From Acidobacteriota bacterium (lineage in GTDB: Bacteria > Acidobacteriota > UBA6911 > JACQSX01): DNA of 47,490 nucleotides. Location of the stretch: the NCBI GenBank assembly GCA_036507075.1, contig DASXQR010000100.1:1-47490 (forward strand), in the 5' to 3' direction. Position numbers and translations under genes: made by a program. Shown here in pieces: positions 10,037-34,100 of this stretch; within the stretch, counting starts at the first letter, position 1, and every line of letters begins with the position of its first letter. The notes under the pieces were generated by a model. That model had not been told where the DNA came from. It did no database searches and worked only from the letters and a program-made list of their open reading frames with translations.

Positions 10037-11125
10037 ATGAAACAGACCCCTCTGAACAGGATCCACCGGCAGATGGGCGCGCGCATGGTGGATTTTGCAG
10101 GGTGGGACATGCCGGTGCAGTACGAGGGAACCGTCAAGGAACACCTTGCGGTACGCCAGGCTGCGGGTCTGTTTGACGTCAGCCACATGGGTGAAATCGA
10201 GATCAAGGGACCCGATGCCCTGCCGCTGGTTCAAAAGGTAACTTCCAACGACGCCGCTTCCCTTCAAATCGGTCAGGCTCAATACTCGGCCTTAATGAAT
10301 CCGAACGGTGCTTTCGTCGATGACACTCTGGTCTACCGGCGCGGACCGGAGCATTTCTTTCTTTGTGTAAATGCAAGCAACCGGGAAAAGGATTGCGAGT
10401 GGATCTCCGAGAACGCGGAAGGAAATGTCCGGGTGGAGAACAACAGCGATCTGTATGTGCAACTGGCCGTCCAAGGACCAAAAGCGATTGCGATCCTGCA
10501 GCCTTTTACCGCGGTCAGGCTTGATAAGATCCATTACTACTGGTTCGCTGAAGGTGACTTTCTGGAAGCCCCGGCCATTCTTTCGCGAACCGGATACACG
10601 GGCGAAGATGGATTTGAGATTTATTTTGCGCCGGAACACGCCGAGCGGATATGGAATGCCATTATTCAGGCGGGCAAGGGCCACGGGCTTGTGCCGGCAG
10701 GCCTCGCGGCGCGAAATACGCTTCGACTTGAAGCCAGGATGGCGCTGTACGGAAATGACATCGATGACAGCACCACCGTCCTGGAGGCTGACCTTGGCTG
10801 GATCATAAAGTGGAGCAAGGGTGACTTCATCGGTCGCCCCGTCCTGGAAGAGCAGAAAGCGCAGGGTATCAGGAGAAAACTGGTCGGTTTTGAAATGGCA
10901 GATCCCGGCATCGCGCGCGATCATTATCCGGTGCACCTGGACGATGGGCGGACCACGCAAGTCTGCAGCGGCAGCTATGTTCCTTTTCTTCAGAAGAGCA
11001 TCGGACTGGTCTATCTTCCCCGCGAGTATAGCGCCGTGGGAAGCGAGTTTCTGGTTGAGATCCGCGGCAGGAAATTGAGAGCGCGCGTTGTGCCGACTCC
11101 ATTCTATAAACGGACGAAACAATGA
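10037..11125 (+). CDS. gcvT: Glycine cleavage system aminomethyltransferase T
   Basis: MVDFAGWDMPVQY, EHLAVR, GLFDVSHMGEI, SRTGYTGEDGFEI, ARNTLRLEA, C-terminal PFYK. Confidence 0.97.
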   Translation: MKQTPLNRIHRQMGARMVDFAGWDMPVQYEGTVKEHLAVRQAAGLFDVSHMGEIEIKGPDALPLVQKVTSNDAASLQIGQAQYSALMNPNGAFVDDTLVYRRGPEHFFLCVNASNREKDCEWISENAEGNVRVENNSDLYVQLAVQGPKAIAILQPFTAVRLDKIHYYWFAEGDFLEAPAILSRTGYTGEDGFEIYFAPEHAERIWNAIIQAGKGHGLVPAGLAARNTLRLEARMALYGNDIDDSTTVLEADLGWIIKWSKGDFIGRPVLEEQKAQGIRRKLVGFEMADPGIARDHYPVHLDDGRTTQVCSGSYVPFLQKSIGLVYLPREYSAVGSEFLVEIRGRKLRARVVPTPFYKRTKQ

Positions 11126-11511
11126 AGACACCTGAAAACCTGCTTTACACCAAAGACCACGAATGGATCCTGATAGAAGGAGACATCGGCACAGTCGGCA
11201 TTACTGATCACGCGCAGCATGAGTTAGGAGACGTGGTGTTCCTGGAGTTGCCAAAAGCCGGCGATTCTTTTGAACTGGGACAGCCTTTCGGCTCGGTGGA
11301 ATCGGTCAAAGCCGTGAGCGAGATTTTTTGTCCCGTCAGCGGAGAGTTAACCGAGGTGAATAAGACTCTTTCGGAGCAGCCCGAGACCGTGAACTCAGAC
11401 CCCTACGGGGATGGCTGGATGATCAGGCTGAAAATCAGGGATTCCAGAGAGCGTGACCAGCTTCTCACGGCAGACGAGTATAGCGCCTGGGTATACCAGG
11501 AAAAGAGTTGA
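11122..11511 (+). CDS. gcvH: Glycine cleavage system H protein
   Basis: YTKDHEWI, VGITDHAQHELGDVVF, lipoyl-lysine motif VESVKAVS, VNSDPYGDGW. It overlaps gcvT by ATGA. Confidence 0.97.
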   Translation: MKTPENLLYTKDHEWILIEGDIGTVGITDHAQHELGDVVFLELPKAGDSFELGQPFGSVESVKAVSEIFCPVSGELTEVNKTLSEQPETVNSDPYGDGWMIRLKIRDSRERDQLLTADEYSAWVYQEKS

Positions 11512-12851
11512 TGTTCCGGTACGTTTCGCTGACAAAAGATGAAAAGCTGAGAATGCTGAAGGCGATGGGCCGCCGCAGCGTGGAAGAGCTGTTCGATTCC
11601 ATTCCCTCGGACGTGCGGCTCAAGGGCGACCTTTCCATTCCCGGCCCGCTTTCCGAAACCGAAGTACTGCGCTACTTCAAACAACTGGCCTCACAAAATC
11701 TCAACTCCGAAGAGCAGTCGTATTTTCTGGGCGCTGGAGCCTACCATCACTTCGTACCGGTCATCATTGATTCCCTTATTTCGCGCGCCGAGTTTTTAAC
11801 CGCCTATACTCCCTATCAGCCCGAAATTTCACAGGGAACACTGCAAAGCATCTTTGAGTTTCAGACCATGATCTGCCAGTTAACCGGAATGGATGTTTCC
11901 AATGCGTCGCTTTACGACGGCAGCACCGCGCTGGCAGAGGCGCTGCTGATGGCAGAGCGCACGCTGAAGCGCCGCAGCTTCGCAATTTCGAACCTGATCC
12001 ATCCCCAATATCGGGCGGTCATGGAAACTTACACCCGCAGCATGGACTTCCGGATCACATCGGTGCCGCATACTCGCGAAGGCCTGACCGATCTGGACGC
12101 CGCACAGCAGGCGCTGAGCGGCGAATCAGCCGCGCTGGCCGTGCAGTATCCAAACTTTTTCGGGAATGTCGAAGATCTGCAGCGTGCCGCCGATGTGGCG
12201 CACCGCCACAAGGCAATGCTGATTGTGGTAGTGACCGAGCCCATCGCTTTGGGTCTGCTCCGCCCGCCGGGTGACTTCAGTGCCGACATTTGTCTGGGTG
12301 AGGGGCAGGGGCTGGGAATTCCACTCAGCTACGGGGGGCCGTACCTCGGGTTTTTTGCAGCTCGCGACGAGTTTAAAAGGCAAATGCCCGGAAGAATCGT
12401 GGGGGAAACGGTCGACTCGGCAGGGGAACGGGGATTTGTGCTCACACTGGCCACGCGCGAGCAGCACATTCGGCGCGAGAAAGCCACGTCCAACATCTGC
12501 ACCAACGAAGGTCTGATCGCCCTGATGGCCAACATCTTTATGTCCACGCTCGGAAAGACCGGCATGCGCGAACTGGCCATGCAGAATTTCAGCAAGGCCC
12601 GCTACACGGCCCGGCGGCTGCAGGAGAGCGGCGTGCCGCTGGCATTCGGCAACAGATTCTTCAATGAATTCGTGGTGCGAACACCGCGGCCCGTCGTCGA
12701 GATCAATGAGCGGCTGGCGCGGGAAGGCATCATTGGCGGGTACGATCTCTCATCTGATTATGCGGGAATGGAAAATCACATGCTGGTTTGTGTCACCGAG
12801 CAGAACACCCGCCGGCAGATTGACCGGTTTGTGGAATTAATGGCCCATTAG
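11511..12851 (+). CDS. gcvPA: Glycine dehydrogenase (decarboxylating) subunit 1
   Basis: FLGAGAYHH, EFLTAYTPYQPEISQGTLQ, NASLYDG, TREQHIRREKATSNICTN. Confidence 0.96.
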   Translation: MFRYVSLTKDEKLRMLKAMGRRSVEELFDSIPSDVRLKGDLSIPGPLSETEVLRYFKQLASQNLNSEEQSYFLGAGAYHHFVPVIIDSLISRAEFLTAYTPYQPEISQGTLQSIFEFQTMICQLTGMDVSNASLYDGSTALAEALLMAERTLKRRSFAISNLIHPQYRAVMETYTRSMDFRITSVPHTREGLTDLDAAQQALSGESAALAVQYPNFFGNVEDLQRAADVAHRHKAMLIVVVTEPIALGLLRPPGDFSADICLGEGQGLGIPLSYGGPYLGFFAARDEFKRQMPGRIVGETVDSAGERGFVLTLATREQHIRREKATSNICTNEGLIALMANIFMSTLGKTGMRELAMQNFSKARYTARRLQESGVPLAFGNRFFNEFVVRTPRPVVEINERLAREGIIGGYDLSSDYAGMENHMLVCVTEQNTRRQIDRFVELMAH

Positions 12852-12889
12852 TTGCCATGATACTCCGGCTGCTGATTCGGAACATCGCT

Positions 12890-12982
12890 TTCACCGCAGA
12901 GTCGCCGAGGACGCCAAGCCTCGCAGAGGTTAGCAATGGAAACTCTGCGGAAACTTGGCGTTCTTTGCGGCTCTGCGGTGAA
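12890..12982. repeat. ~90-bp palindromic element, family C, copy 1
   Basis: Termini are TTCACCGCAGAG...CTCTGCGGTGAA with internal nonamer-like units. Other copies are at 16197-16283 and 29249-29339. Confidence 0.88.
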
Positions 12983-13083
12983 TGCAACGTGTTCGCCTCA
13001 GATCGGCTGAGATTTGGGCTCGCTACTTTGGTTTCCGGCTATGGCTGCCCTTTGGCAACACTTCATGGTTGGCGGCAAAACAG

Positions 13084-14583
13084 ATGCGCGTACACTCAAT
13101 TCCAAATATAGACGAAAGCCTGATATTTGAGCGTTCCACACCGGGCAAGACCGCTTATTCGCTGCCGATGCTCGACGTGCCGGAAGCCGATGCGGCTTCG
13201 TACCTGGGCGCTGAAAATCTGCGACAATCAATTGAAGACTTCCCAGAGCTGTGCGAGCTGGATGTGATCCGCCACTTTACCCGCATCTCCACCTGGAATT
13301 ACCACATCGACATCGGAATGTATCCGCTCGGTTCCTGCACCATGAAGTACAACCCGCGGTTGAACGAGAAAGTATGGCGCATCGCCGGAATTTCCGGCTG
13401 CCACCCCCTGCAACAGAGTTCCCTGGCGCAGGGAAATTTGCGCGTGCAGTATGAATTGCAGAACCTGTTGCGTGAGATCACCGGCATGGTTGCCGTTTCG
13501 CTGCAGCCCGCTGCCGGAGCCCATGGCGAGTTGACGGGAATACTTATGATCCGCGCATACCATGATTCCCGGAATTCAAGGCGCAAGTACGTGCTGATCC
13601 CTGACAGCGCGCATGGAACCAATCCGGCCAGTGCGGCCATCGCGGGCTACCAGGTCAAGTCGGTTCCGTCTAACCCTGACGGTCGGGTAAATTTCGACTG
13701 GCTGAAGTCGGTTGTCAACGACGAAACAGCCTGCCTGATGATCACAAATCCCAACACGCTGGGCATTTTCGAACGGCGCATCAGGGAAATCGCCGACCTG
13801 CTCCACCAGAAGGATGCCCTGTTGTACATGGACGGCGCGAATTTCAACGCCTTGATGGGCTATACCCGCCCCGGTGAGATGGGAGTCGATGTGATTCATC
13901 TTAATCTTCACAAGACATTCAGCACTCCCCATGGAGGCGGCGGGCCGGGGGCCGGTCCGGTGGCCGTAAGCAGGCGCCTGGAGCCTTTTCTTCCCGTGCC
14001 ACTGGCGGCCCGAAAGGCCGACGGTACGTATTATTTCGATTTTGACCGTCCCCAGAGCATCGGCCGGGTGCGCGCATTCTTTGGGAACTTCGGCATGCAT
14101 GCGCGCGCGCTGTGCTACATCCTGACTTGCGGCGCCGCCGGGTTGAAGGAAATCTCTGAAACAGCGGTGCTGAACGCCAACTACCTCCGTCACCAGTTGA
14201 AGGATCTATTTGACCTTCCTTACCCGGAAGATTCACTGCATGAAGTGATCTTCTCCGATAAACTGCAGAGCCGGAAAGGCGTAAAGACTTTCGATATTGC
14301 CAAGCGCCTGATGGACTACGGTTTTCATCCACCCACAATTTATTTTCCGCTGATCGTCCCGGGAGCGATCATGATCGAGCCGACGGAAAGTGAAAGTAAG
14401 CAGGAACTGGATGCGTTTGTCGAGGCGCTTCGTTCCATCTGCCGGGAAATCGATGAGAATCCGGAAAAGGTGCTGCAGGCACCCCATAAGACCAAGCTGC
14501 GCCGCCTGGACGAAGCTCGAGCCGCGCGCCAGCCGGTTCTGCGCTGGCGCCGCCCGAACCGCCAAGAACGCGAAGAGCGCTAA
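13084..14583 (+). CDS. gcvPB: Glycine dehydrogenase (decarboxylating) subunit 2
   Basis: LIFERS, YPLGSCTMKYNP, LQPAAGAHGE, PDSAHGTNPASA, PLP-lysine motif HLNLHKTFSTPHGGGGPG. The start is placed at ATG 13084. Confidence 0.96.
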   Translation: MRVHSIPNIDESLIFERSTPGKTAYSLPMLDVPEADAASYLGAENLRQSIEDFPELCELDVIRHFTRISTWNYHIDIGMYPLGSCTMKYNPRLNEKVWRIAGISGCHPLQQSSLAQGNLRVQYELQNLLREITGMVAVSLQPAAGAHGELTGILMIRAYHDSRNSRRKYVLIPDSAHGTNPASAAIAGYQVKSVPSNPDGRVNFDWLKSVVNDETACLMITNPNTLGIFERRIREIADLLHQKDALLYMDGANFNALMGYTRPGEMGVDVIHLNLHKTFSTPHGGGGPGAGPVAVSRRLEPFLPVPLAARKADGTYYFDFDRPQSIGRVRAFFGNFGMHARALCYILTCGAAGLKEISETAVLNANYLRHQLKDLFDLPYPEDSLHEVIFSDKLQSRKGVKTFDIAKRLMDYGFHPPTIYFPLIVPGAIMIEPTESESKQELDAFVEALRSICREIDENPEKVLQAPHKTKLRRLDEARAARQPVLRWRRPNRQEREER

Positions 14584-14713: not shown

Positions 14714-15676
14714 CTAAAAGTAGCCCTTACGGTAAACCAGGCGCGCCTGGGGTATCGTTGTTCTTACTTCGATGCGCTTGAATTGTTTCAAGTCGCGTTT
14801 GGCGGAGACTGGGGCATAGGTCAATACGTACTGCTGCTTCAATTCGGCTGCTACTTCCCGATAAAAATTTCTATAATCCGGAACTTCATCCGCAAAATAA
14901 ATCCGGCCGCCGCTGACGTCGGCCAGATCGATCATATGGCGTTCTTTTTTGCGAATAATTTCGCTCACAAGATCCTGCCCGTCACCCGTCAAGTCGCGTA
15001 ATACACGTTCGAGAAACTGCACGCGGCCGCTCTTCTGGACTTCAGAGCGCAACAACCGCGTCTTGCTGATGATGTAAACCGCGACAGAATCTTTCAACAC
15101 GGCGCCGCGCGTTGCTTCGTAGTTCAACCTGCTGTCATTTTCCATCCCGTCCGTCAGTAAAATGAGAGCCCGCTTGCCGTCGGCGTTTCTGAACTGTTCT
15201 TCCGCCATGGCATAAATCGCGTCGTAAAGGGCGGTGCGGAAACCAACCTTGATTGAGCCAATGGAGCGATCAACCTTCCTCTTGCTGCTGGTCCAGTCCT
15301 GAAGCAGTTCCACGTCACTTGAAAAAGTGGCCACGCAGATTCGATCGCGTGACGTGAGGAACGAAGCAAACTGATGGGCGGAATACTTTATTTCGTGCAG
15401 TTCGTCCTGCAGGCTGGTGGAACCGTCGATCAGCAGCGCGGCGTAAACTGGTCCCTGGTCCTGAACGAAATTGACGATGGGACGCGCTTGCCCATCCTCG
15501 AAAACGCTCAGGTCTTCTGCCTTGACTGTCGCAATAGCCCGGCCGGCCGCATCCGTCACACTGAGCGGCACCCGCACATAGTCGGCCTGAACGCGCAGCT
15601 TGTATGCAGACTGGTCCTCTGCTTTGATAAAAGCAATCAGCGGGACAAGGAAGAGAATAAAACGGGATCGAATCAC
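14714..15676 (-). CDS. Secreted VWA domain protein (Acidobacterial type)
   Basis: Signal peptide, VRVPLSVTD, MIDAS DGSTS, TALYDAI, LLTDG, C-terminal LKQQYVLTY...RKGYF. Confidence 0.85.
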   Translation of the reverse strand: MIRSRFILFLVPLIAFIKAEDQSAYKLRVQADYVRVPLSVTDAAGRAIATVKAEDLSVFEDGQARPIVNFVQDQGPVYAALLIDGSTSLQDELHEIKYSAHQFASFLTSRDRICVATFSSDVELLQDWTSSKRKVDRSIGSIKVGFRTALYDAIYAMAEEQFRNADGKRALILLTDGMENDSRLNYEATRGAVLKDSVAVYIISKTRLLRSEVQKSGRVQFLERVLRDLTGDGQDLVSEIIRKKERHMIDLADVSGGRIYFADEVPDYRNFYREVAAELKQQYVLTYAPVSAKRDLKQFKRIEVRTTIPQARLVYRKGYF

Positions 15677-15688
15677 CTCCCTATTCTA

Positions 15689-16144
15689 ATGAAAAAATAC
15701 GAAGAGATCGAGCATACGGCCGATCTTGGCCTGCGCATCTATGGCGAAAGTCTTGAAGCTCTCCTGGCGAACGCGGGCCAGGGAATGTTCTCGCTCATTG
15801 GCGAGCTTCGCGAACTCAAACAGACGCGGGAGATAAGGCTCAATGTGCCGTTTTCGGACCCATCCATTCCTTCCAGCCGCGGTTTGGATTCCCTGGAAGC
15901 CGCCGAAGATCTTCTACCCGAATGGCTGAGGCGACTGTTGACGGAATTCAACCTGCGCGCATTCTTCCCCTTTCAATATGCGCTCACATTGAACGTTAAC
16001 GGGTTGACCGCAGAATTGACGGGCGCGCTGTTTGAACCCGGCAGGGACGTCTTTTATACCGAGATAAAAGGCGTCACGTTCCATGGCTTGAAGGTTGCTA
16101 AAATGGAAGATAGATGGCAGGCCGAGGTAATTTTTGATGTATGA
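15689..16144 (+). CDS. Archease (RtcB activator)
   Basis: Archease signatures: N-terminal YEEIEHTADLG, EIKGVTFHGL and C-terminal VIFDV. It lies directly upstream of rtcB. The true start is ATG 15689 within the longer ORF. Confidence 0.93.
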   Translation: MKKYEEIEHTADLGLRIYGESLEALLANAGQGMFSLIGELRELKQTREIRLNVPFSDPSIPSSRGLDSLEAAEDLLPEWLRRLLTEFNLRAFFPFQYALTLNVNGLTAELTGALFEPGRDVFYTEIKGVTFHGLKVAKMEDRWQAEVIFDV

Positions 16145-16155
16145 ACTGCAACCAC

Positions 16156-16340
16156 GCGGGTTGCGGGTTGGCAGGTTGCGGGTTGTGGCTGCTCGCTTCA
16201 CCGCAGAGCCGCAGAGTACGCAGAGTTTCCGCAGAGATAGGAACCTCCGCGGAACTCGGCGTACTCTGCGGCTTTGCGGTGAATGCGATTGAGGTCACCC
16301 CGGCCCAACCCGGAACCCGTAACCCTTAAACTCGCAACCT
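16156..16340. repeat. Family C palindromic element (16197-16283) nested within a GCGGGTT/AACCCG heptamer foldback
   Basis: TTCACCGCAGAG...TTTGCGGTGAA is flanked by GCGGGTT repeats (16156-16188) and their complement (16297-16340). Confidence 0.85.
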
Positions 16341-16344
16341 TTTT

Positions 16345-17781
16345 ATGGAACTGAAGCAGATCGAACGCAACATCTGGGAAATTCCAAAACATGGCCCGAT
16401 GCGGGTGCCGGGGAGAATCTTTGCGAGCACGTCTTTGATGGAACAGCTTCGAGAAGATCCGGCCCTCACGCAAGTAGCCAACGTGGCCGCTCTCCCGGGG
16501 ATCGTGGGATATTCTCTGGCGATGCCCGACATTCACTGGGGCTATGGCTTCCCGATCGGAGGCGTGGCCGCCACGCGGGTTGATGAAGGCGTTATCTCTC
16601 CCGGAGGAGTCGGCTACGACATCAATTGAGGCGTCCGCCTCGTGAGGACCGGTCTGGTCTTCTCAGAAATTCAAGAACGAATTCCCGATCTCGTCCGCAC
16701 GTTATTCCAGCGCATCCCCTGCGGAGTGGGAATCGGAGGGGCTATTCCAAAGCTATCACGCCAGGATGTCCATCGCGTTCTCGGTCAGGGAGCGCGCTGG
16801 GCTGTTGAAAATGGCTTTGGCAGCGAGTCGGACCTGGATACAACGGAAGAAAACGGTGTTCTGAAAAGCGCGGCTCCTGAAGTCGTCAGCGACGTGGCCA
16901 TCGAACGCGGTGCCAGGCAACTCGGCACCCTTGGCTCGGGCAATCACTTCCTGGAGATCGACCGGGTGGAGGAAATTTATCTTCCCGAAGTGGCGGCCCG
17001 CTGCGGACTGACGATGGACGGCGTCGTCTTTATCATCCATTCCGGTTCACGGGGCCTCGGCTACCAGGTCTGCGAAGACCACCTTGGGATCATGGACAAG
17101 GCAATGAAACGCTACCGGATCGACGTCCCCGACCGTCAGCTCGCGTGCGCCCCGGTCCAGTCTGAAGAGGGCCTGACTTATCTCAAGGCGATGGCTGCGG
17201 CTGCCAATTTCGCCTGGTGCAATCGCCAGGTCATGATGGCGCTGGCAGAGCGAAGCTTTCTCGAAACATTGCAGATCTCGCCGCGCCAGCTGCAGTGCCG
17301 GCTGGTTTACGACGTCTGCCACAACATTGCAAAGATGGAAACTCACCAGGTCGACAGGAAAATGGTCGATGTTTGCGTCCATCGTAAAGGGGCAACCCGC
17401 GCTTTCGGGCCTCATCGACCCGAGGTTCCCGAGATTTATCGTGACATAGGACAGCCCGTACTGATTCCGGGAGACATGGGCCGCGGCTCTTACCTTTTAC
17501 TCGGAACCGCAGCGGCGATGTTGAAAACGTTCGGCAGCACCTGTCACGGAGCCGGGCGGGTCATGTCGCGCACCCAATCAAGGAAGGCCAGCCGGGGCAG
17601 AAACCTGGTTGAAGAAATGCGAAACCAGGGAGTGAGCGTTATGTTCCACGGTCGCAACACACTGGCTGAGGAAATGCCACATGCCTATAAGAATGTGGGC
17701 GACGTGGTCGACGTTATGCAGGAGGCGGGAATCAGTCTGAAGGTGGCCAAATTCCGACCTGTTGGGGTAATTAAAGGATAA
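16345..17781 (+). CDS. rtcB: RtcB RNA 3'-phosphate/2',3'-cyclic phosphate-5'-OH ligase, with in-frame TGA (codon 95, 16627-16629) predicted to encode selenocysteine
   Basis: The 94-aa and 379-aa ORFs are in the same frame, and readthrough gives 478 aa. Motifs present: [23 protein letters not shown][TGA][58 protein letters not shown] and terminal VIKG. Confidence 0.92.
16643..16665 (+). promoter_or_regulatory. Candidate bacterial SECIS hairpin within rtcB
   Basis: TGAG-GACC [GGTCT] GGTC-(TT)-CTCA. The loop begins 22 nt after the TGA and matches the GGUCU core of the E. coli fdhF SECIS loop. Confidence 0.75.
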
Positions 17782-17782
17782 G

Positions 17783-18006
17783 GAAAGGCCGGAAGGCGGA
17801 AGGCGGAAAGCGGAAGGCGGAAAGCGGATATCAGCGGTCCGTTGTTAGGTGTCGGTTGGTTTCATTGGAACCGCCACTTTCATGCAGCGGACTACTGACG
17901 ACAGACTTTGACAATGAGCTGTCCCGCTTTCTGCCTTCCGCTTTCTGCTTTCCGCTTACTGCTTTCTGCTTTCCGCTTTCCGCTTTCCGCCTTCCGCCTT
18001 CCGCTT
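17783..18006. repeat. Heptamer foldback (GGAAGGC/GGAAAGC tract and complementary CCGCCTT/CCGCTTT tract) between convergent rtcB and comEC
   Basis: A tract at 17783-17828 and its complement at 17924-18006 enclose a second heptamer family. Confidence 0.85.
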
Positions 18007-20569
18007 ACCGCGGGGCGATAAACAAAAAACCATCCTGGTCCGTTCTGTGGATGCTGGCACCCGCGGAGATCAACCGATCCAGCACGACTGGGTGTGGATG
18101 GTCAAAGAGGTTCCTCCTGCCGCACGAGATCAGAGTCAGTGTCGGCCGAAGCTCGGCAAGCCAGGCCTGGGAAGTCGAGGATGCGCTGCCATGGTGCGCC
18201 ACCTTTAAGATATCCACGGCTCCCACGCGCCCTGCCAGCATTTCTTCCTCTCGTCGGGTCATGTCGCCCGTGAACAGGAATGTCCGGCCCCCGCATTGAA
18301 TTCGCAGCACCAGTGAGCTCTCATTGCTGCCCGAAAACACTGTCTTCTTTCCCGGGTGCAGCACCTCGACGATCGCATGGGCCAGTTCAAATCTCTCTCC
18401 CTCGGATACAAATACAATCTGAGTCCCTTCAGGAATTCTGCTCACAAACGCCGGAAACAGCGGGTCCACCGCGGCTGCCCGTGATAAGTAAATCCGCGGC
18501 GCGCGAAGATTCCGTGCCAGGCGGGACACAGCCGAAACGTGGTCTTCATGCAGGTGCGACACGAAAATACCTTCAATCTTTCGGGCGCCTGCCTGCCACA
18601 GGGCGCGACTGAGCACATTCCTGCCGAGAAATGCGTTCTCACCGGATTCTTCACGTTCTCCGTCGGACCCGAGCGGAAATGTGCCGGCATCTATTAGAAT
18701 CACTCTGCCCTCACCGTCAAGCACCGCCGCGCTGTCGCCCTGACCTACGTCGAAGAAGTAAACACCCGGCCGGGGCTTGCGCGACTGATCGGCAAAGAAA
18801 AACCACCCCAGGTTCACCAGGAAGAGGACCAGCACCAGCACCTGCCGGGCTTTCGAGGAGCGGATGACGATCTGAAGGCCGATCATCAAAATCAGCGGCA
18901 ACAGCAGCCATTCTGTCGGATGTGGGTGGTCGGGCAGGCTCCATCGGTCAAACCAGTAAACGGCGCCGTAACAGAAACAGACCAGTCTTTCAATCAGCCA
19001 CGCAAGCGGTGAGAGCGTAATCGGGCATACACTCAGAATGAGCCCGCCCAGCAGAACAACCGAAGTGACCGGCAGGAGCACCAGGTTTGCCAGCAGCGCC
19101 GGCCCCGGTCCCTGATTGGAGTGAAAAGTTGACAGCAGCCACGTCTCATTCTGAATCAGGAAAGCGACCACCAGCCACTTGGAGATCAGAATGAAAATGA
19201 ACAGCGGCGCTCTGGCGGGCCAATAACAGAGCTGCAAATACCGGTGCGTTTCCAGCAGAGCTTCCGCATGGAATCGGAGGCTGCGCGCATCACGGCTTGC
19301 CGCATGCCTTCGCAAATCCAGCACGGGACTCCAGCACCGCCGCAGTGCTGAGAGTGGATAGAGCAGCGATTCTAAAACCGGCGGTGCAATACAGATCAGC
19401 ACGACACAGCAAAGGAAGGAAAACTGAAAACCGGGGTTAAAGAGCATCATGGGCTGCCAACAGAGCGCCAGCAGACCGGCGGCTCCGAGAAAATTCAAAG
19501 AGCTACCCTTGCGCCAAAGCGACTCGGAGACAAGCAGACAGACTGAAACGAGGAAGGCGCGGACAACCGAAGGGCCTGCATCGAGACGGATCAGAATTGC
19601 AGCACTCAATCCGGCAAACAAAGCCGCCCGAAGCGCGAATGGAAATAACAGCCTGCGCGCTATCCATGCCGCAATTCCAAGAATGAGAGCAAAATGCATT
19701 CCCGACACGACCAAAAGGTGGTACACACCCACCGACTGCGACGCCAGGATGAAGTTCTCAGGCAGCCGGTATCGATCACCCCAGAGCAGGGCGTCGACAA
19801 AGGCAGGTATAGGGCTGTTCTCAGGCCAATACCATCTCAGGAGAGTGGATCCTCGCGCGGCCAGCCAGAGCCGCTTCCAGGCGACATTCTGAGGCTGATA
19901 ATCCAGCAGCCATGGCGATTTTAGGATCGCCACCCCGTGGATTCTTTGCTCACACAGTCTGCGTTCCAGCCACAGTCGTCCGGGATTCTGAAAGGCCTGC
20001 GCGCTTCGCAGATCTCCCCAGAAGCGCACCGGGTCACCCGGCAAGGGCGGATTCCAGCTTTTTTTCACCCCGGATTGATCGAAAAAGAATTCCCAGGGTT
20101 CCAGTACGGAAGAATAGATGTGGAGTTCAACATTGGCGCTCAGGTCTCTGGCGCTGTGCCTCTCATAAACACGTCCTATTTTCGCCCGGATCACCACCCG
20201 GTCCTTTTCCATACAGGGAAGAGAATCGATCACGCCCCTAAACTCTGCTGTCTGGCCTTCCGCAGGCAGGCTTGCTCTGGCGCGATGGAAATCATCCTGC
20301 TCCGAGCTGAGGAGCGCAGCCGCGCCGAAGAATATCAAACCGAAAACTGCAGGCAATCGACCGCAAAACCTGAGCGCGGCCAGCCCCCCGAGAAGAAATG
20401 CAATTGGAAGCCAACTCCATCCTATTTTCTGCTGTGCCGCGATTCCGCCGGCCATGGCTGAAGCGGCGAAGAACAGCGGGTGCAAAAGAATGAAATTGGC
20501 AACTTTTCTCTCTGGTCTTGCCGCAGAGAATGCAGTCTGCTTTCCACAGTTTGCTAAGCTGCCGCTCAC
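18005..20569 (-). CDS. comEC: ComEC/Rec2 DNA-uptake channel with C-terminal metallo-beta-lactamase domain (start uncertain)
   Basis: Competence domain HLLVVSGMH, PSVVRA and GFQFSF; MBL domain FFDVGQGDS, SHLHEDH, SNESSLVL, LFTGD, LKVAHHGS, FDHPHP and RTDQDG. Confidence 0.92.
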   Translation of the reverse strand: MSGSLANCGKQTAFSAARPERKVANFILLHPLFFAASAMAGGIAAQQKIGWSWLPIAFLLGGLAALRFCGRLPAVFGLIFFGAAALLSSEQDDFHRARASLPAEGQTAEFRGVIDSLPCMEKDRVVIRAKIGRVYERHSARDLSANVELHIYSSVLEPWEFFFDQSGVKKSWNPPLPGDPVRFWGDLRSAQAFQNPGRLWLERRLCEQRIHGVAILKSPWLLDYQPQNVAWKRLWLAARGSTLLRWYWPENSPIPAFVDALLWGDRYRLPENFILASQSVGVYHLLVVSGMHFALILGIAAWIARRLLFPFALRAALFAGLSAAILIRLDAGPSVVRAFLVSVCLLVSESLWRKGSSLNFLGAAGLLALCWQPMMLFNPGFQFSFLCCVVLICIAPPVLESLLYPLSALRRCWSPVLDLRRHAASRDARSLRFHAEALLETHRYLQLCYWPARAPLFIFILISKWLVVAFLIQNETWLLSTFHSNQGPGPALLANLVLLPVTSVVLLGGLILSVCPITLSPLAWLIERLVCFCYGAVYWFDRWSLPDHPHPTEWLLLPLILMIGLQIVIRSSKARQVLVLVLFLVNLGWFFFADQSRKPRPGVYFFDVGQGDSAAVLDGEGRVILIDAGTFPLGSDGEREESGENAFLGRNVLSRALWQAGARKIEGIFVSHLHEDHVSAVSRLARNLRAPRIYLSRAAAVDPLFPAFVSRIPEGTQIVFVSEGERFELAHAIVEVLHPGKKTVFSGSNESSLVLRIQCGGRTFLFTGDMTRREEEMLAGRVGAVDILKVAHHGSASSTSQAWLAELRPTLTLISCGRRNLFDHPHPVVLDRLISAGASIHRTDQDGFLFIAPR

Positions 20570-30385: not shown

Positions 30386-31771
30386 ATGGATTCACTCTAT
30401 CGCAAGATTCCTTCCGTCGACCGCGTGCTGCAGCATGATCGGTTGCGCCTGCTGCTCGAGACACATCCCCGCGAGCTGGTGGTGCACCAGGTTCAACGCG
30501 CGCTTTCCGAACTGCGTTCCCAAGTCCAAACAGATCCGGATTCCACAGCCCTGGAGGCCGATATCGCCAGATTGCCGGAGACCGTGGACCGCCTGCTTCG
30601 CCAGAGCATTCAACTTCCCCTGCGGCGCGTAATCAACGCCACCGGCGTTGTGATCCATACCAATCTGGGCCGCTCGCCGCTGGATCCCGAGGCGATCGAC
30701 TACCTGCGCGAAGTATCCAACGGCTATTGCAATATCGAATATGATCTAGAAACCGGAGGACGCAGTCACCGGGAAATTCATATCGAATCCGTTCTTGAGC
30801 AGATCACCGGCCACAAAGTTGCGGCTGCGGTTGTCAACAATAATGCCGCGGCGGTATTCCTGATTCTGGAAACGCTGGCCTCTGGAGGCGAGGTGATCGT
30901 GTCACGCGGCGAGCTGGTCGAAATCGGCGGATCATTTCGCATCCCGGAAATCCTGGAAAAGAGCGGCGCAAAACTGCGGGAAGTGGGCACCACCAACAAG
31001 ACACGAGCCGATGATTACGCGCGCGCCATCTCCAAAAACACGCGGCTGATCCTGCGAGTCCACCCGAGCAATTTTCACATCGTGGGATTCACCGAGCGGC
31101 CCGCGCTGCAGGAACTGGTGGAACTGGCGCGCCGGCACGAGTTGCCTTTGGTGGAAGATCTCGGCAGCGGATTGATTTCCGACAACCCGGCATTCGCGGA
31201 GACCGAGCCCACCGTGCGCAGCAGCCTCAATGCTGGCGTGGACCTGATCTGCTTCAGCGGCGATAAGCTCCTGGGAGCGACCCAGGCAGGAGTGATCCTC
31301 GGAAATCCCAAGTGGATCAAGCGCATCCGAAGCAATCCGTTGATGCGCGCTCTGCGTCTGGACAAGACAGGATACGCCATTCTGGTTCATTCTCTTTACC
31401 GATACCTGACCGGCGAAAAGGAGCGATTGCCGATCCACCATTTTCTCACGCTGGCAGTATCGGAATTGAAGACACGGGCCGAAAAGCTCTCCAAACAGGT
31501 CACGGCCGGGCGGGTGGAGCTGAGGGACTCATTTTCCCTGGTCGGCGGCGGCAGCGCCCCCGACGTGAAGATCGACACCATCGTGCTGGTTTTCGAGCCG
31601 GGGGAACGCTCCGCGGAAGCAATGCACCGCTTTTTGCGGCAGCAGGAGCCGCCGATCGTGGCGCGGATCGAAGAAAACCGGCTGATTGTGGACCTTCGGA
31701 CGGTCTGGCCCGACGACGACACAACTATCGCCGACGCCGTGAACCGCTTCTACCGCGCTTCCGACGCTTGA
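30386..31771 (+). CDS. selA: L-seryl-tRNA(Sec) selenium transferase (selenocysteine synthase)
   Basis: LYRKIPSVD, RRVINATGVVIHTNLGRSPL, VVNNNAAAV, SRGELVEIGGSFRIPE, EVGTTNKT, VHPSNF, EDLGSG, PLP-lysine FSGDKLLG, RALRLDK. It is full length at 461 aa. Confidence 0.96.
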   Translation: MDSLYRKIPSVDRVLQHDRLRLLLETHPRELVVHQVQRALSELRSQVQTDPDSTALEADIARLPETVDRLLRQSIQLPLRRVINATGVVIHTNLGRSPLDPEAIDYLREVSNGYCNIEYDLETGGRSHREIHIESVLEQITGHKVAAAVVNNNAAAVFLILETLASGGEVIVSRGELVEIGGSFRIPEILEKSGAKLREVGTTNKTRADDYARAISKNTRLILRVHPSNFHIVGFTERPALQELVELARRHELPLVEDLGSGLISDNPAFAETEPTVRSSLNAGVDLICFSGDKLLGATQAGVILGNPKWIKRIRSNPLMRALRLDKTGYAILVHSLYRYLTGEKERLPIHHFLTLAVSELKTRAEKLSKQVTAGRVELRDSFSLVGGGSAPDVKIDTIVLVFEPGERSAEAMHRFLRQQEPPIVARIEENRLIVDLRTVWPDDDTTIADAVNRFYRASDA

Positions 31772-33893
31772 AACCGGTCTCTGCGCCCGCTTTTTCCGCC
31801 AGAGCGAAATCAATCAGATGGCGATCGCGATCAATCTTGTCCACAACGATTCGTACTCTGTCACCCAGCCTGAAGATTCTGCCCGAGTTCTCGCCGATAA
31901 GACGGTGTGTCCGTTCGTCGAAGAAATAGTAGTCGTCCGGCATCTTGGATACGTGGATGAATCCTTCCACAAAGTGATCGAGCAGTTCGATGAACAGGCC
32001 GTTGTGGCGCACGCTGCTCACAAAGCCGTTGTACTCTTCACCCAACCGTCCGGACATGAATACGGCCATCAGCCATTTCATGATTTCACGCTCCGCTTCA
32101 TCCGCCCTGCGCTCGCGCTCCGAGCTCTGATCGGAGATTTCCCCCAGCATTCCCCGCCATTTCTCGCGTCCCGCTGAATTATCCAGCGCCTGCTTGAGAA
32201 GCCGGTGTACCACCAGGTCCGGGTAGCGGCGGATGGGAGAGGTGAAATGCGTGTAAAAGTGCGTCGCCAGCCCGAAGTGTCCCAGATTTTCGTCGCTGTA
32301 TCGAGCCTGCTTGAAAGAGCGCAGCATTATGTAGGAAAGGAATCGTTCTTCCGGCTTTCCGGAGAAGTTTTCGCTGAGGCGCTGGAAATCCCTGGCCGAG
32401 TATTCTTCTTTTTCGGGCCCGAGACTGTAGCCGAACTCCCGCACCAGGCGCGCAAATTCTTTGACCTTGAAGGGATCCGGCTCTTCGTGAACCCGGTAAA
32501 TCATCCCCCGATCGCGGGCCGTCAGATAGGTGGCCACGGTTTCGTTGGCCAGCAGCATGAATTCTTCAATCAGCCGGTGCGCTTCATTGCGCTCGCTCCG
32601 GACAATGTCAAACATCTCTCCGTTAACGTCGTACTCGATCTCCGCTTCCGGAAGATCAAAATCAATAGCTCCTTTGGCCTTTCTTTTTGCTGTGAGAATC
32701 CGGGAAAGCTCCAGCATCCATTCGAATCGTTCCGCCAGATCGCGGTATTTCTGCGTCAGAGCCGGATCATGATCAACCACGATCTTCTTTACCGCGGTAT
32801 AGGTCATGCGGGCGCGGCTGCGAATTACACTGTGGGCGAACCGGTAGCGGCCGACATTGCCCCGGCTGTCCACTTCCATGAAAACGGACATCGTCAGCCG
32901 GTCCTCATCGGGCCTCAGGCTGCACACATTGTTGGAAAGCTTTTCGGGCAGCATGGGGATCGCGCGGTCCGGAAAATAGACCGAGGTGCCGCGTACAAAG
33001 GCTTCCGTGTCCAGCGGCTGCCCTGCAGTTACGTAATGCGACACATCCGCGATGTGAACGCCCAGAAGAAACCCGTCTTTGGCGCGCTCAATCGAAATGG
33101 CATCATCAAAATCGCGCGCCGTTTCGCCGTCGATCGTGACAATCGGCTCATCTCTCAAGTCTTCGCGGCTTTCGATCTCCGCCCGGCCCGGCGCCCGGAT
33201 TGCCTCTGCTTCCTGCAGCACCTCATCGGGGAACTGCATCGGAATCTGGTTCTTGTAGCAAACAATTTTGAACTGGATCTCCGGATCGTCCGGAAAACCA
33301 AGCACCGCCTCGACCCTTCCCAGGGGCGGCTCAAAGCGTTTCGGCTGGGCCACGATATCTACGTTGACGATCTGACCCTCATGCAACTTGTCGGGCGATC
33401 CGGTGATCTGGATGGTGTAGTGATATCGCTCGTCCAGAGGAGTAACCATCCACTGGTCGCGATGGCGGAAGAGCTTGCCCACGACTTGTTCCTGGGAGCG
33501 CGACAGCACGCGCACCACTTTCCCTTCCAGCCTGCCGGCCCGGCCTTTGCGGGAAACCTGCACTTGGACTTTGTCGCCATGAACCGCATTGGCCAGATTA
33601 TCCGGAGGGATAAAAACATCCGGCAGATTCTCCCTTTCAATCACGACAAACCCGTATCCGTCGCGGTGCGTCGTCAGCCTTCCCGTCAGCAGATTCGCCG
33701 CCGGGCGGGCGCCCGCCGTGGAATAAAGGTTTTTCTTTACACGAGCCAACCGCCCGTCCTGAACCTCCGATTCGAGCCAGCGCCTGAGCTGCCGTCGCTC
33801 GTCGACATCCAAATCGAAATGTTCAATGATTTTCCTGAGTGTCACCGGTTTTCGTTCTCTCTGGATGAATTCGAGAATATCTCTGGTATTCAT
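31725..33893 (-). CDS. rnr: Ribonuclease R
   Basis: N-terminal HTH, HRDGYGFV cold-shock domain, TIDGETARDFDDA, HIADVS, LIEEFML, YTHFTSPIRRYPDLVVHR, S1 domain and basic tail. The start is placed at ATG 33893. Confidence 0.96.
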   Translation of the reverse strand: MNTRDILEFIQRERKPVTLRKIIEHFDLDVDERRQLRRWLESEVQDGRLARVKKNLYSTAGARPAANLLTGRLTTHRDGYGFVVIERENLPDVFIPPDNLANAVHGDKVQVQVSRKGRAGRLEGKVVRVLSRSQEQVVGKLFRHRDQWMVTPLDERYHYTIQITGSPDKLHEGQIVNVDIVAQPKRFEPPLGRVEAVLGFPDDPEIQFKIVCYKNQIPMQFPDEVLQEAEAIRAPGRAEIESREDLRDEPIVTIDGETARDFDDAISIERAKDGFLLGVHIADVSHYVTAGQPLDTEAFVRGTSVYFPDRAIPMLPEKLSNNVCSLRPDEDRLTMSVFMEVDSRGNVGRYRFAHSVIRSRARMTYTAVKKIVVDHDPALTQKYRDLAERFEWMLELSRILTAKRKAKGAIDFDLPEAEIEYDVNGEMFDIVRSERNEAHRLIEEFMLLANETVATYLTARDRGMIYRVHEEPDPFKVKEFARLVREFGYSLGPEKEEYSARDFQRLSENFSGKPEERFLSYIMLRSFKQARYSDENLGHFGLATHFYTHFTSPIRRYPDLVVHRLLKQALDNSAGREKWRGMLGEISDQSSERERRADEAEREIMKWLMAVFMSGRLGEEYNGFVSSVRHNGLFIELLDHFVEGFIHVSKMPDDYYFFDERTHRLIGENSGRIFRLGDRVRIVVDKIDRDRHLIDFALAEKAGAETGFKRRKRGRSGSRRRR

Positions 33894-33895
33894 GG

Positions 33896-34100
33896 GAGTT
33901 GCAAGTTCCGAGTTGCGAGTTACGGGGTTACGGGTTACGGGTTTCGGATTACGAGTTACGGGTCCACGAATTGTGAAGCGAGAATTCTTGTTTGAAACTG
34001 CCGATGTAACAAGTCTCGCCAATTTTCAATGCAATTCGCAACTCGCCAACCCGGAAACCGCACCTTCCCAACTCGGAACCCGAAACCCGCCAACCCGTAA
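33896..34100. repeat. Heptamer foldback (CGGGTTA/CGAGTT tract and complementary AACCCG/AACTCG tract)
   Basis: A tract at 33896-33965 and its complement at 34035-34100; same family as 16156-16340. Confidence 0.8.

Follow-up and report, generated by a model that had tools for sequence, protein, structure and literature searches.

A candidate selenocysteine form of the RNA ligase RtcB, with an in-frame UGA at the codon of the metal-bridging cysteine

The 47,490-nt contig DASXQR010000100.1 of an Acidobacteriota bacterium (assembly GCA_036507075.1; the whole stretch analysed is called the window below) carries an rtcB gene whose frame contains a single UGA, at the codon that specifies the metal-bridging cysteine in the known members of the family. 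RtcB is the universal ligase for RNA 3'-phosphate and 5'-OH ends, with roles in the splicing of tRNA, the repair of RNA and the unfolded-protein response of animals, and its metal-bridging cysteine is regarded as essential as well as being its oxidative weak point. We consider the gene to be a real and recurrent selenocysteine (Sec)-coding gene, in which the UGA of codon 95 would be decoded as Sec, and put the probability of this reading at about 0.9. The original prediction, made from the letters of the window, had proposed the same decoding from a hairpin after the UGA and the presence of selA. It is now supported by the pairing of Sec and cysteine forms among homologues, by recurrence of the UGA at this codon, by the hairpin and by a full Sec machinery in the genome.

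16345..17781, + strand: rtcB coding sequence, 478 codons, UGA at codon 95, TAA stop
16627..16629, + strand: in-frame UGA, putative Sec codon, aligned with the metal-bridging Cys98

The list of open reading frames (ORFs) holds two in a single frame, 16345..16629 (94 aa) and 16642..17781 (379 aa), and the sequence confirms that one TGA splits them, as had been claimed. The local reading is ...GGC TAC GAC ATC AAT TGA GGC GTC CGC CTC..., with the TGA at 16627-16629; translated as U it gives a protein of 478 residues with U95 and zero further stops. This readthrough protein matches the Pfam RtcB family (PF01139) across the entire profile (E 6e-170, 566.5 bits, residues 43-478, profile 1-426 of 426). 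It also matches Pyrococcus horikoshii RtcB (PDB 1uc2; E 3e-166, residues 2-478) and Thermus thermophilus TTHA1785 (2epg; E 4e-146). U95 falls opposite Cys98 of 1uc2, the residue predicted for it and the equivalent of C122 in the human enzyme. The expected protein of normal length with every named catalytic motif was also found: GYDIN is at 90, GNHF at 199, HSGSRG at 232, CHN at 325 and CHGAGR at 400, and the protein ends in KG.

According to the excerpted text of PMC9745838, the metal ligands of P. horikoshii RtcB are Asp95, His203, His234 and His329, and the nucleophile is His404. Cys98 ligates both metals, M1 together with His234 and His329 and M2 together with Asp95 and His203; its alanine mutant lost every step of the ligation pathway, and in one crystal it was seen as the sulfonic acid (PMC9745838). 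In the alignment to 1uc2 the window protein retains the remaining ligands, as D92, H201, H232 and H326, and the nucleophile, as H401. The bridging cysteine of the family is missing at the codon level, where TGA stands, and nothing but decoding of the UGA as Sec would keep a chalcogen ligand at that position. In its genome, an assembly of 6.1 Mb in 233 contigs with 95.7% completeness, the gene is the sole RtcB match with this query. The protein is also matched, in two stretches, by the NCBIfam profile for intein-containing RtcB, the best of them from residue 94 on (profile 578-961 of 961). Cys98 is described as the intein splice junction in P. horikoshii (PMC4150793, in the part available), so the Sec codon and the intein insertion use the same residue.

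The TGA is present in other sequencing data, namely in Logan contigs (not raw reads) of two runs, neither of them the possible source. A 1508-nt contig of run X2 lies on 16345-16894 with 0 differences, and a 242-nt contig of run X3 lies on 16583-16824 with one difference, at 16758; no other letter was seen at 16627-16629 in these contigs of any run. Among the matches listed for run X1, which may be the source sample, there was no long contig of the rtcB locus, and RNA run X10 gave only short pieces, from relatives including one cysteine form, which speak neither for nor against expression. TGA ends 10 of the 17 Pfam-supported ORFs of the window, and is therefore not reassigned genome-wide. Compared with the nearest relative that has the TGA (G003), the protein is 82% identical in the part before the TGA and 80% identical in the part after it. 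The proportion of nonsynonymous differences (pN) is 0.12 on both sides, at a synonymous proportion (pS) of about 0.75, ie with synonymous sites saturated. The comparison of selection across the TGA that the original prediction had suggested thus comes out equal, and equal pN with similar identity implies that both parts are translated and under like constraint. As had been foreseen, automated annotation truncates the gene: it appears in the protein collection just as a fragment of 379 aa, and fragments of this length (P0003, P0006 and P0022) make up 3 of the 120 best matches in that collection.

Within the class to which the window belongs, RtcB was found at E<=1e-100 in 57 of 137 genomes; in 11, the window's own included, the gene has one TGA, and in 46 it has none. 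The 10 TGA genes that were fetched have it at codon 95, in ...GYDIN-TGA-GVRL, and the same codon is TGC or TGT in the cysteine-type relatives. (Genes with TGA and with TGC or TGT at this position are called Sec and Cys genes below.) The closest Cys-type relative from a genome, G004, belongs to the same family and has TGC at 78% identity; in the protein collection there is a Cys-form protein, P0002, with 81%. A wider scan for the pattern GG-x-G-[YF]-D-[IV]-N-TGA-GG, in one genome per species, returned at least 120 loci, which answers the question whether other genomes have TGA at this codon. Carriers among the loci listed are titled Deltaproteobacteria/Thermodesulfobacteriota, Nitrospirota/Thermodesulfovibrionia, Acidobacteriota, Binatia, Eisenbacteria, Gemmatimonadales and Polyangiaceae. 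Flanks were fetched for 80 loci and all 80 are RtcB genes, reading SPGG(V)G(Y/F)DIN-TGA-GVR; 70 of them continue for 378-383 codons to ...KG, 7 leave the contig and 3 are broken or masked (L066, L092 and L094). As a control for pseudogenes, a stop one step away (TAA or TAG) was sought at the neighbouring Tyr/Phe codon, with the cysteine kept, in a metagenome collection. Only 2 loci were found in that far larger collection, a rough contrast as the two collections differ. With at least 120 loci sharing the TGA at this codon, chance is excluded. Close homologues that all have cysteine, with no conserved hairpin, had been named as one outcome that would refute the idea; the homologues are instead a mixture of TGA and Cys forms, and the hairpin is confined to the former.

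16644..16662, + strand: hairpin GAGGACC-GGUCU-GGUCUUC of the type of the bacterial Sec insertion sequence (bSECIS), 7-bp stem, 5-nt loop starting GG

Folded alone, this hairpin has a free energy of -8.8 kcal/mol, and 4 of 200 shuffled sequences were as good; the same hairpin was recovered in a 64-nt fold. The published bSECIS model allows a loop of 3-9 nt whose first two positions contain G, a stem of 4-16 bp, a distance of 16-37 nt between UGA and loop, and a minimum free energy (MFE) of -7.5 kcal/mol or below (PMC13188914, Fig. 2 legend). The window hairpin fits every one of these, with 5 nt, 7 bp, GG, 21 nt and -8.8 kcal/mol, so that the SECIS-like hairpin claimed behind the UGA is indeed there, at 16644-16662, and within published constraints. 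Across genes, the best single hairpin lying no more than 60 nt past the codon has a mean free energy of -15.9 kcal/mol in Sec genes (n=122 distinct) compared to -9.2 kcal/mol in Cys genes (n=20). In 72 of the Sec genes the loop of this hairpin begins at +23 to +25, and in 28 at +30 to +33. Hairpins of at least 5 bp with a GGU loop at +23..+25 occur in 34 of 77 complete Sec genes and in 0 of 20 Cys genes, the background of GGU-loop hairpins elsewhere in the same genes being 0.6 per 1000 nt. Of 10 Sec genes of the class (chosen by kinship), 9 retain the core ACCGGUCUGGU, although synonymous sites are otherwise saturated; the Cys genes, which vary there, lack it. In 19 genes titled Nitrospirota the hairpin is longer, with 16 predicted pairs, 5 of which show compensatory double changes.

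Within 48 nt after its Cys codon G004 (locus L018) carries GGACCGGUCUGGCC, which is the Sec-type hairpin except for one pair that a Val-to-Ala change disrupts. This hints that the hairpin is a relic of a recent switch from Sec to Cys. Two ways of counting hairpins were discarded. The MFE of sliding 48-nt windows discriminated poorly, with a mean z of -1.0 in Sec genes, 21 of 77 of which ranked among the best 5% of windows within the gene itself; for the Cys genes the mean z was +0.7 and 0 of 20 reached the best 5%. Three fixed hairpin registers matched 88 of 122 Sec and 0 of 20 Cys windows, figures that are not evidence since the groups were defined by the counted feature.

30386..31771, + strand: selA (selenocysteine synthase), Pfam SelA E 7e-128 plus Se-cys_synth_N, 12.6 kb downstream

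The selA gene reported from the window is thus borne out at 30386-31771 by its Pfam SelA match (E 7e-128). The genome encodes the rest of the pathway as well: SelB is present, as are a tRNA-Sec with anticodon UCA (Rfam 71.7 bits; ARAGORN) and selD (G000:C59:4836-5753). The selD gene has an in-frame TGA of its own, at locus position 1531 (...VSCAG-TGA-AAKL...), with a hairpin whose GUU loop lies about 36 nt past its UGA. A genome lacking selB, selC and selD would have spoken against Sec; all three, selC being the tRNA-Sec, were found. There is a second Rfam match to tRNA-Sec, at G000:C43:8059-8148, with 52.3 bits, above the gathering score; ARAGORN reports one tRNA-SeC only. The 10 other genomes of the class with the TGA have SelA in 10 cases and SelB in 8, the two that miss SelB being 63% and 86% complete. 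In the wider set SelA was found in 46 of 50 pattern carriers (the first 50 of the 80 loci listed). The four without it are G162, with SelB and SelD, G164, with SelB, G147, with SelD, and G175, with none. The expectation that all carriers of the TGA have sel genes therefore stood for 49 of the 50 tested, in the sense of at least one Sec-pathway gene, and failed for G175. A genome-wide scan for TGA followed by a hairpin with a GGU or AGU loop was abandoned; it gave 340 candidates, 44 under stricter settings, nearly all noise, and missed the genome's own selD.

A FastTree phylogeny was built with the Sec/Cys column masked; its 209 rows comprise 75 Sec genes, 114 Cys proteins and a further 20 Cys genes taken from loci. 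At least 9 changes between Sec and Cys are required, 6 of them forced by well-supported branches, compared with about 62 for shuffled labels. The window's rtcB sits in a supported group of 4 rows (2 Sec, 2 Cys) inside a group of 21 rows with 19 Cys forms. Gain and loss of Sec are not separable in this tree, which is unrooted and whose Cys sample is biased toward the window's relatives; the hairpin of G004 hints at a change from Sec to Cys there. A partner residue specific to Sec forms was sought and rejected. The candidate, Cys325 (beside H326), is present in 56 of 75 Sec and 119 of 134 Cys forms, and the other differences track phylogeny owing to the same bias of the Cys set.

15689..16144, + strand: archease gene (RtcB activator), Pfam Archease E 7e-27 at residues 109-256 of ORF 15374-16144

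A gene for archease lies just upstream of rtcB. Its ORF, 15374-16144, has 105 extra N-terminal codons without a Pfam match, and the start is probably the internal ATG at 15689 (MKKYEEIEH...). An ORF with a VWA domain on the opposite strand, 14714-15676, overlaps that N-terminal extension. An upstream archease on the same strand was found in 76 Sec loci, and upstream sequence of at least 600 nt was available for 85. In the protein collection P0051, of 583 aa, has both RtcB and Archease Pfam domains, ie a natural fusion of the two partners.

In the mechanism we propose, the hairpin, which begins 14 nt past the UGA, would recruit SelB carrying Sec-tRNA(Sec), and Sec would be placed at codon 95. 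The selenolate would then take the place of the Cys thiolate bridging the catalytic metals M1 and M2. The enzyme should otherwise behave as a canonical RtcB: archease, presumably co-transcribed with rtcB, would assist guanylylation of His401, and GMP would pass to the RNA 3'-phosphate ahead of sealing. Selenium insertion and enzyme activity are what we infer; the anatomy of the gene, the pairing of Sec and Cys forms, the hairpin and the machinery are the observations from which we do so.

Several results weigh against Sec decoding, most of them concerning the hairpin. In the window's class it is conserved and hardly covaries, with a compensatory change in 1 of 5 pairs. Its 64-nt fold has a z of -1.5, 16 of 200 shuffles being as good, a stability that is unremarkable for a GC-rich gene, and the 48-nt window after the UGA has a z of -0.07 compared with other windows of the same rtcB. 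On 39 genes titled Desulfobacterota RNAalifold found no hairpin, giving only a trivial 3-bp structure. A structure named from the same Desulfobacterota sequences had 87.6% of its cells paired and 0 double changes, no better than shuffles; the register of the Desulfobacterota-type hairpin differs by one base between subtypes. An Rfam scan of 16560-16760 at E<=10 returned no SECIS family and only two chance snoRNA matches. The machinery is also found in 7 Cys-type relatives (SelB 7/7, SelA 6/7), so within the class it is necessary for Sec decoding but does not discriminate. G175 (locus L066, titled Gemmatimonadales, 7.1 Mb) has the TGA and the hairpin without SelA, SelB or SelD. Its rtcB frame shifts twice, and may be that of a gene decaying after loss of the Sec trait, or the product of assembly indels. 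Chemically, a selenolate is a soft ligand for Mn2+. Engineered P. horikoshii RtcB with Sec at position 98 (U98) suffered cleavage of a peptide bond close by (PMC4150793, in the part available), and Sec at the Cys98 site is thus not automatically tolerated.

Three other explanations of the TGA were weighed. In favour of an ordinary Cys-type rtcB, spoiled by mutation or by a sequencing or assembly error, are the 379-aa fragments that gene callers yield (P0003, P0006 and P0022) and the broken frames of a few carriers (L066, L094). We give this almost no weight, because the same-codon TGA in at least 120 species genomes already refutes it; two other runs yielded contigs with the TGA, the parts before and after it are under equal purifying selection, the control stop at the neighbouring codon was found just twice, and the gene is the only RtcB of a genome that is 95.7% complete. 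A split enzyme, in which translation stops at the UGA and restarts at the GTG at 16642 to leave pieces of 94 and 379 aa without the bridging residue, is very improbable. The GTG does lie 4 codons past the TGA, and the ORF starting there is the product the gene callers report. The bridging Cys that a two-piece form would lack is, however, essential (PMC9745838, as excerpted), the GVRL between TGA and GTG is conserved as coding sequence in all carriers, and elsewhere the position of the GTG is mostly CTG, CTC or ATG within LLRS or LMRS, ie not a conserved start.

Readthrough without selenium is also improbable, though not to the same degree. The UGA might be suppressed by a near-cognate tRNA inserting Trp, Cys or Arg, the tRNA-Sec might be mischarged, or the UGA might serve mainly as a selenium-dependent brake on RtcB synthesis. 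In its favour, the residue at codon 95 is known only from the nucleotide sequence, and functional Cys forms stand next to Sec forms in the phylogeny. On the other side are the conserved hairpin at the SECIS position, confined to TGA forms, the finding of at least one Sec-pathway gene in 49 of 50 carriers tested, and the ordinary use of TGA as a stop in this genome. Trp or Arg at the bridging position would, moreover, be expected to kill the enzyme, given that the alanine mutant is dead (PMC9745838, as excerpted).

Accepting Sec at codon 95, the reason we prefer for it is that Sec would resist being over-oxidised irreversibly, as happens when the Cys enzymes lose their activity. That weakness is documented for Cys-RtcB (PMC9745838, PMC10630183 and PMC12263435, in the parts available); a shifted metal preference is the alternative. 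A fuller picture can be drawn, which we hold tentatively and at less than even odds. Sec-RtcB would be a widespread, uncatalogued selenoenzyme in which selenium, rather than acting as a redox catalyst, bridges a binuclear metal site for nucleotidyl transfer and resists the over-oxidation that takes Cys98 to the sulfonic acid, possibly with a shifted metal preference. It would be a bacterial counterpart, at the level of a residue, of the PYROXD1 of animals, and Sec and Cys forms would have changed into one another at least 6-9 times.

Among known systems, the gene resembles the Cys-type RtcB enzymes (PH1602, 1uc2/4dwq; TTHA1785, 2epg; human RTCB) in full-length homology, metal ligands, His nucleophile and a partner gene for archease, and differs from them in that the bridging residue (Cys98; C122 in human) is UGA-encoded with a recoding hairpin after it. 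With bacterial selenoprotein genes, for which Escherichia coli fdhF is the model, it shares a UGA, a stem-loop within 16-37 nt, an apical loop beginning with G and a Cys homologue. Its GGUC-type loop resembles that of fdhF. The protein it encodes is, in contrast to theirs, a GTP-dependent nucleotidyl-transferase/ligase and not an oxidoreductase. Direct coordination of a catalytic metal by a Sec selenolate is familiar from [NiFeSe] hydrogenase and from the Mo/W formate dehydrogenases. Those are redox enzymes of Ni or Mo/W, whereas the RtcB site is binuclear, with Mn (or Co/Ni), and carries out phosphoryl and nucleotidyl transfer. Decoding of a bSECIS depends on SelA, SelB, SelC and SelD (PMC13188914, in the part available). 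An artificial enzyme with Sec at exactly this residue exists, P. horikoshii RtcB U98, which was produced through suppression of UAG by means of an engineered EF-Tu, a SECIS not being involved (Haruna et al. 2014, PMC4150793); the part of that paper available does not mention natural Sec forms. Metazoan RTCB has the same vulnerable Cys, which undergoes metal-induced oxidative inactivation and is protected by a partner oxidoreductase, PYROXD1 or thioredoxin (PMC12263435, PMC10630183, in the parts available). The form in the window would change the residue itself, and a shared purpose is our suggestion.

No report of a natural Sec-RtcB was found in full-text literature searches, which did not cover one selenoprotein study of groundwater metagenome-assembled genomes. 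RtcB, ligase, splicing and PF01139 are absent from the main text of a 2026 review of the prokaryotic selenoproteome with 119 families (PMC13188914). These words are likewise absent from BSepDB (111 families; text and one supplement) and from the supplements of deep-Sep and of a 2016 ISME J survey. NCBIfam has ordinary and intein-containing RtcB models only and no selenoprotein model, and a 2023 review of RtcB contains no word beginning with 'selen'. As far as we have searched, Sec-RtcB is an uncatalogued selenoprotein family, as a variant of a known enzyme family. If the reading is right, it adds a non-oxidoreductase to a bacterial selenoproteome that has been described as mostly redox proteins. 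It would also offer a natural experiment on selenium in place of sulphur at a metal site, bearing on oxidation resistance, metal preference and rate. Further, well over a hundred species would have an rtcB wrongly annotated as a truncated gene or a pseudogene, and the RNA-repair capacity of anaerobic and soil bacteria would consequently be undercounted.

Upstream of the archease and rtcB genes, at 10037-14583, the glycine-cleavage cluster is complete, with gcvT, gcvH and a P protein of two subunits. Downstream of rtcB, ComEC is encoded on the minus strand (18005-20569), and RNase R, also on the minus strand (31725-34022), adjoins selA. Short tandem arrays flank rtcB on both sides. Those upstream, within 16156-16236, consist of GCGGGTT repeated 4 times and CCGCAGAGT repeated 3.9 times. 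Downstream there are AAGGCGG, repeated 6 times (17785-17828), just past the stop codon, and CCGCTTT, repeated 10.6 times (17924-17997), about 100 nt further on. CCGCTTT is approximately the reverse complement of AAAGCGG units, and the two downstream arrays could pair with each other.

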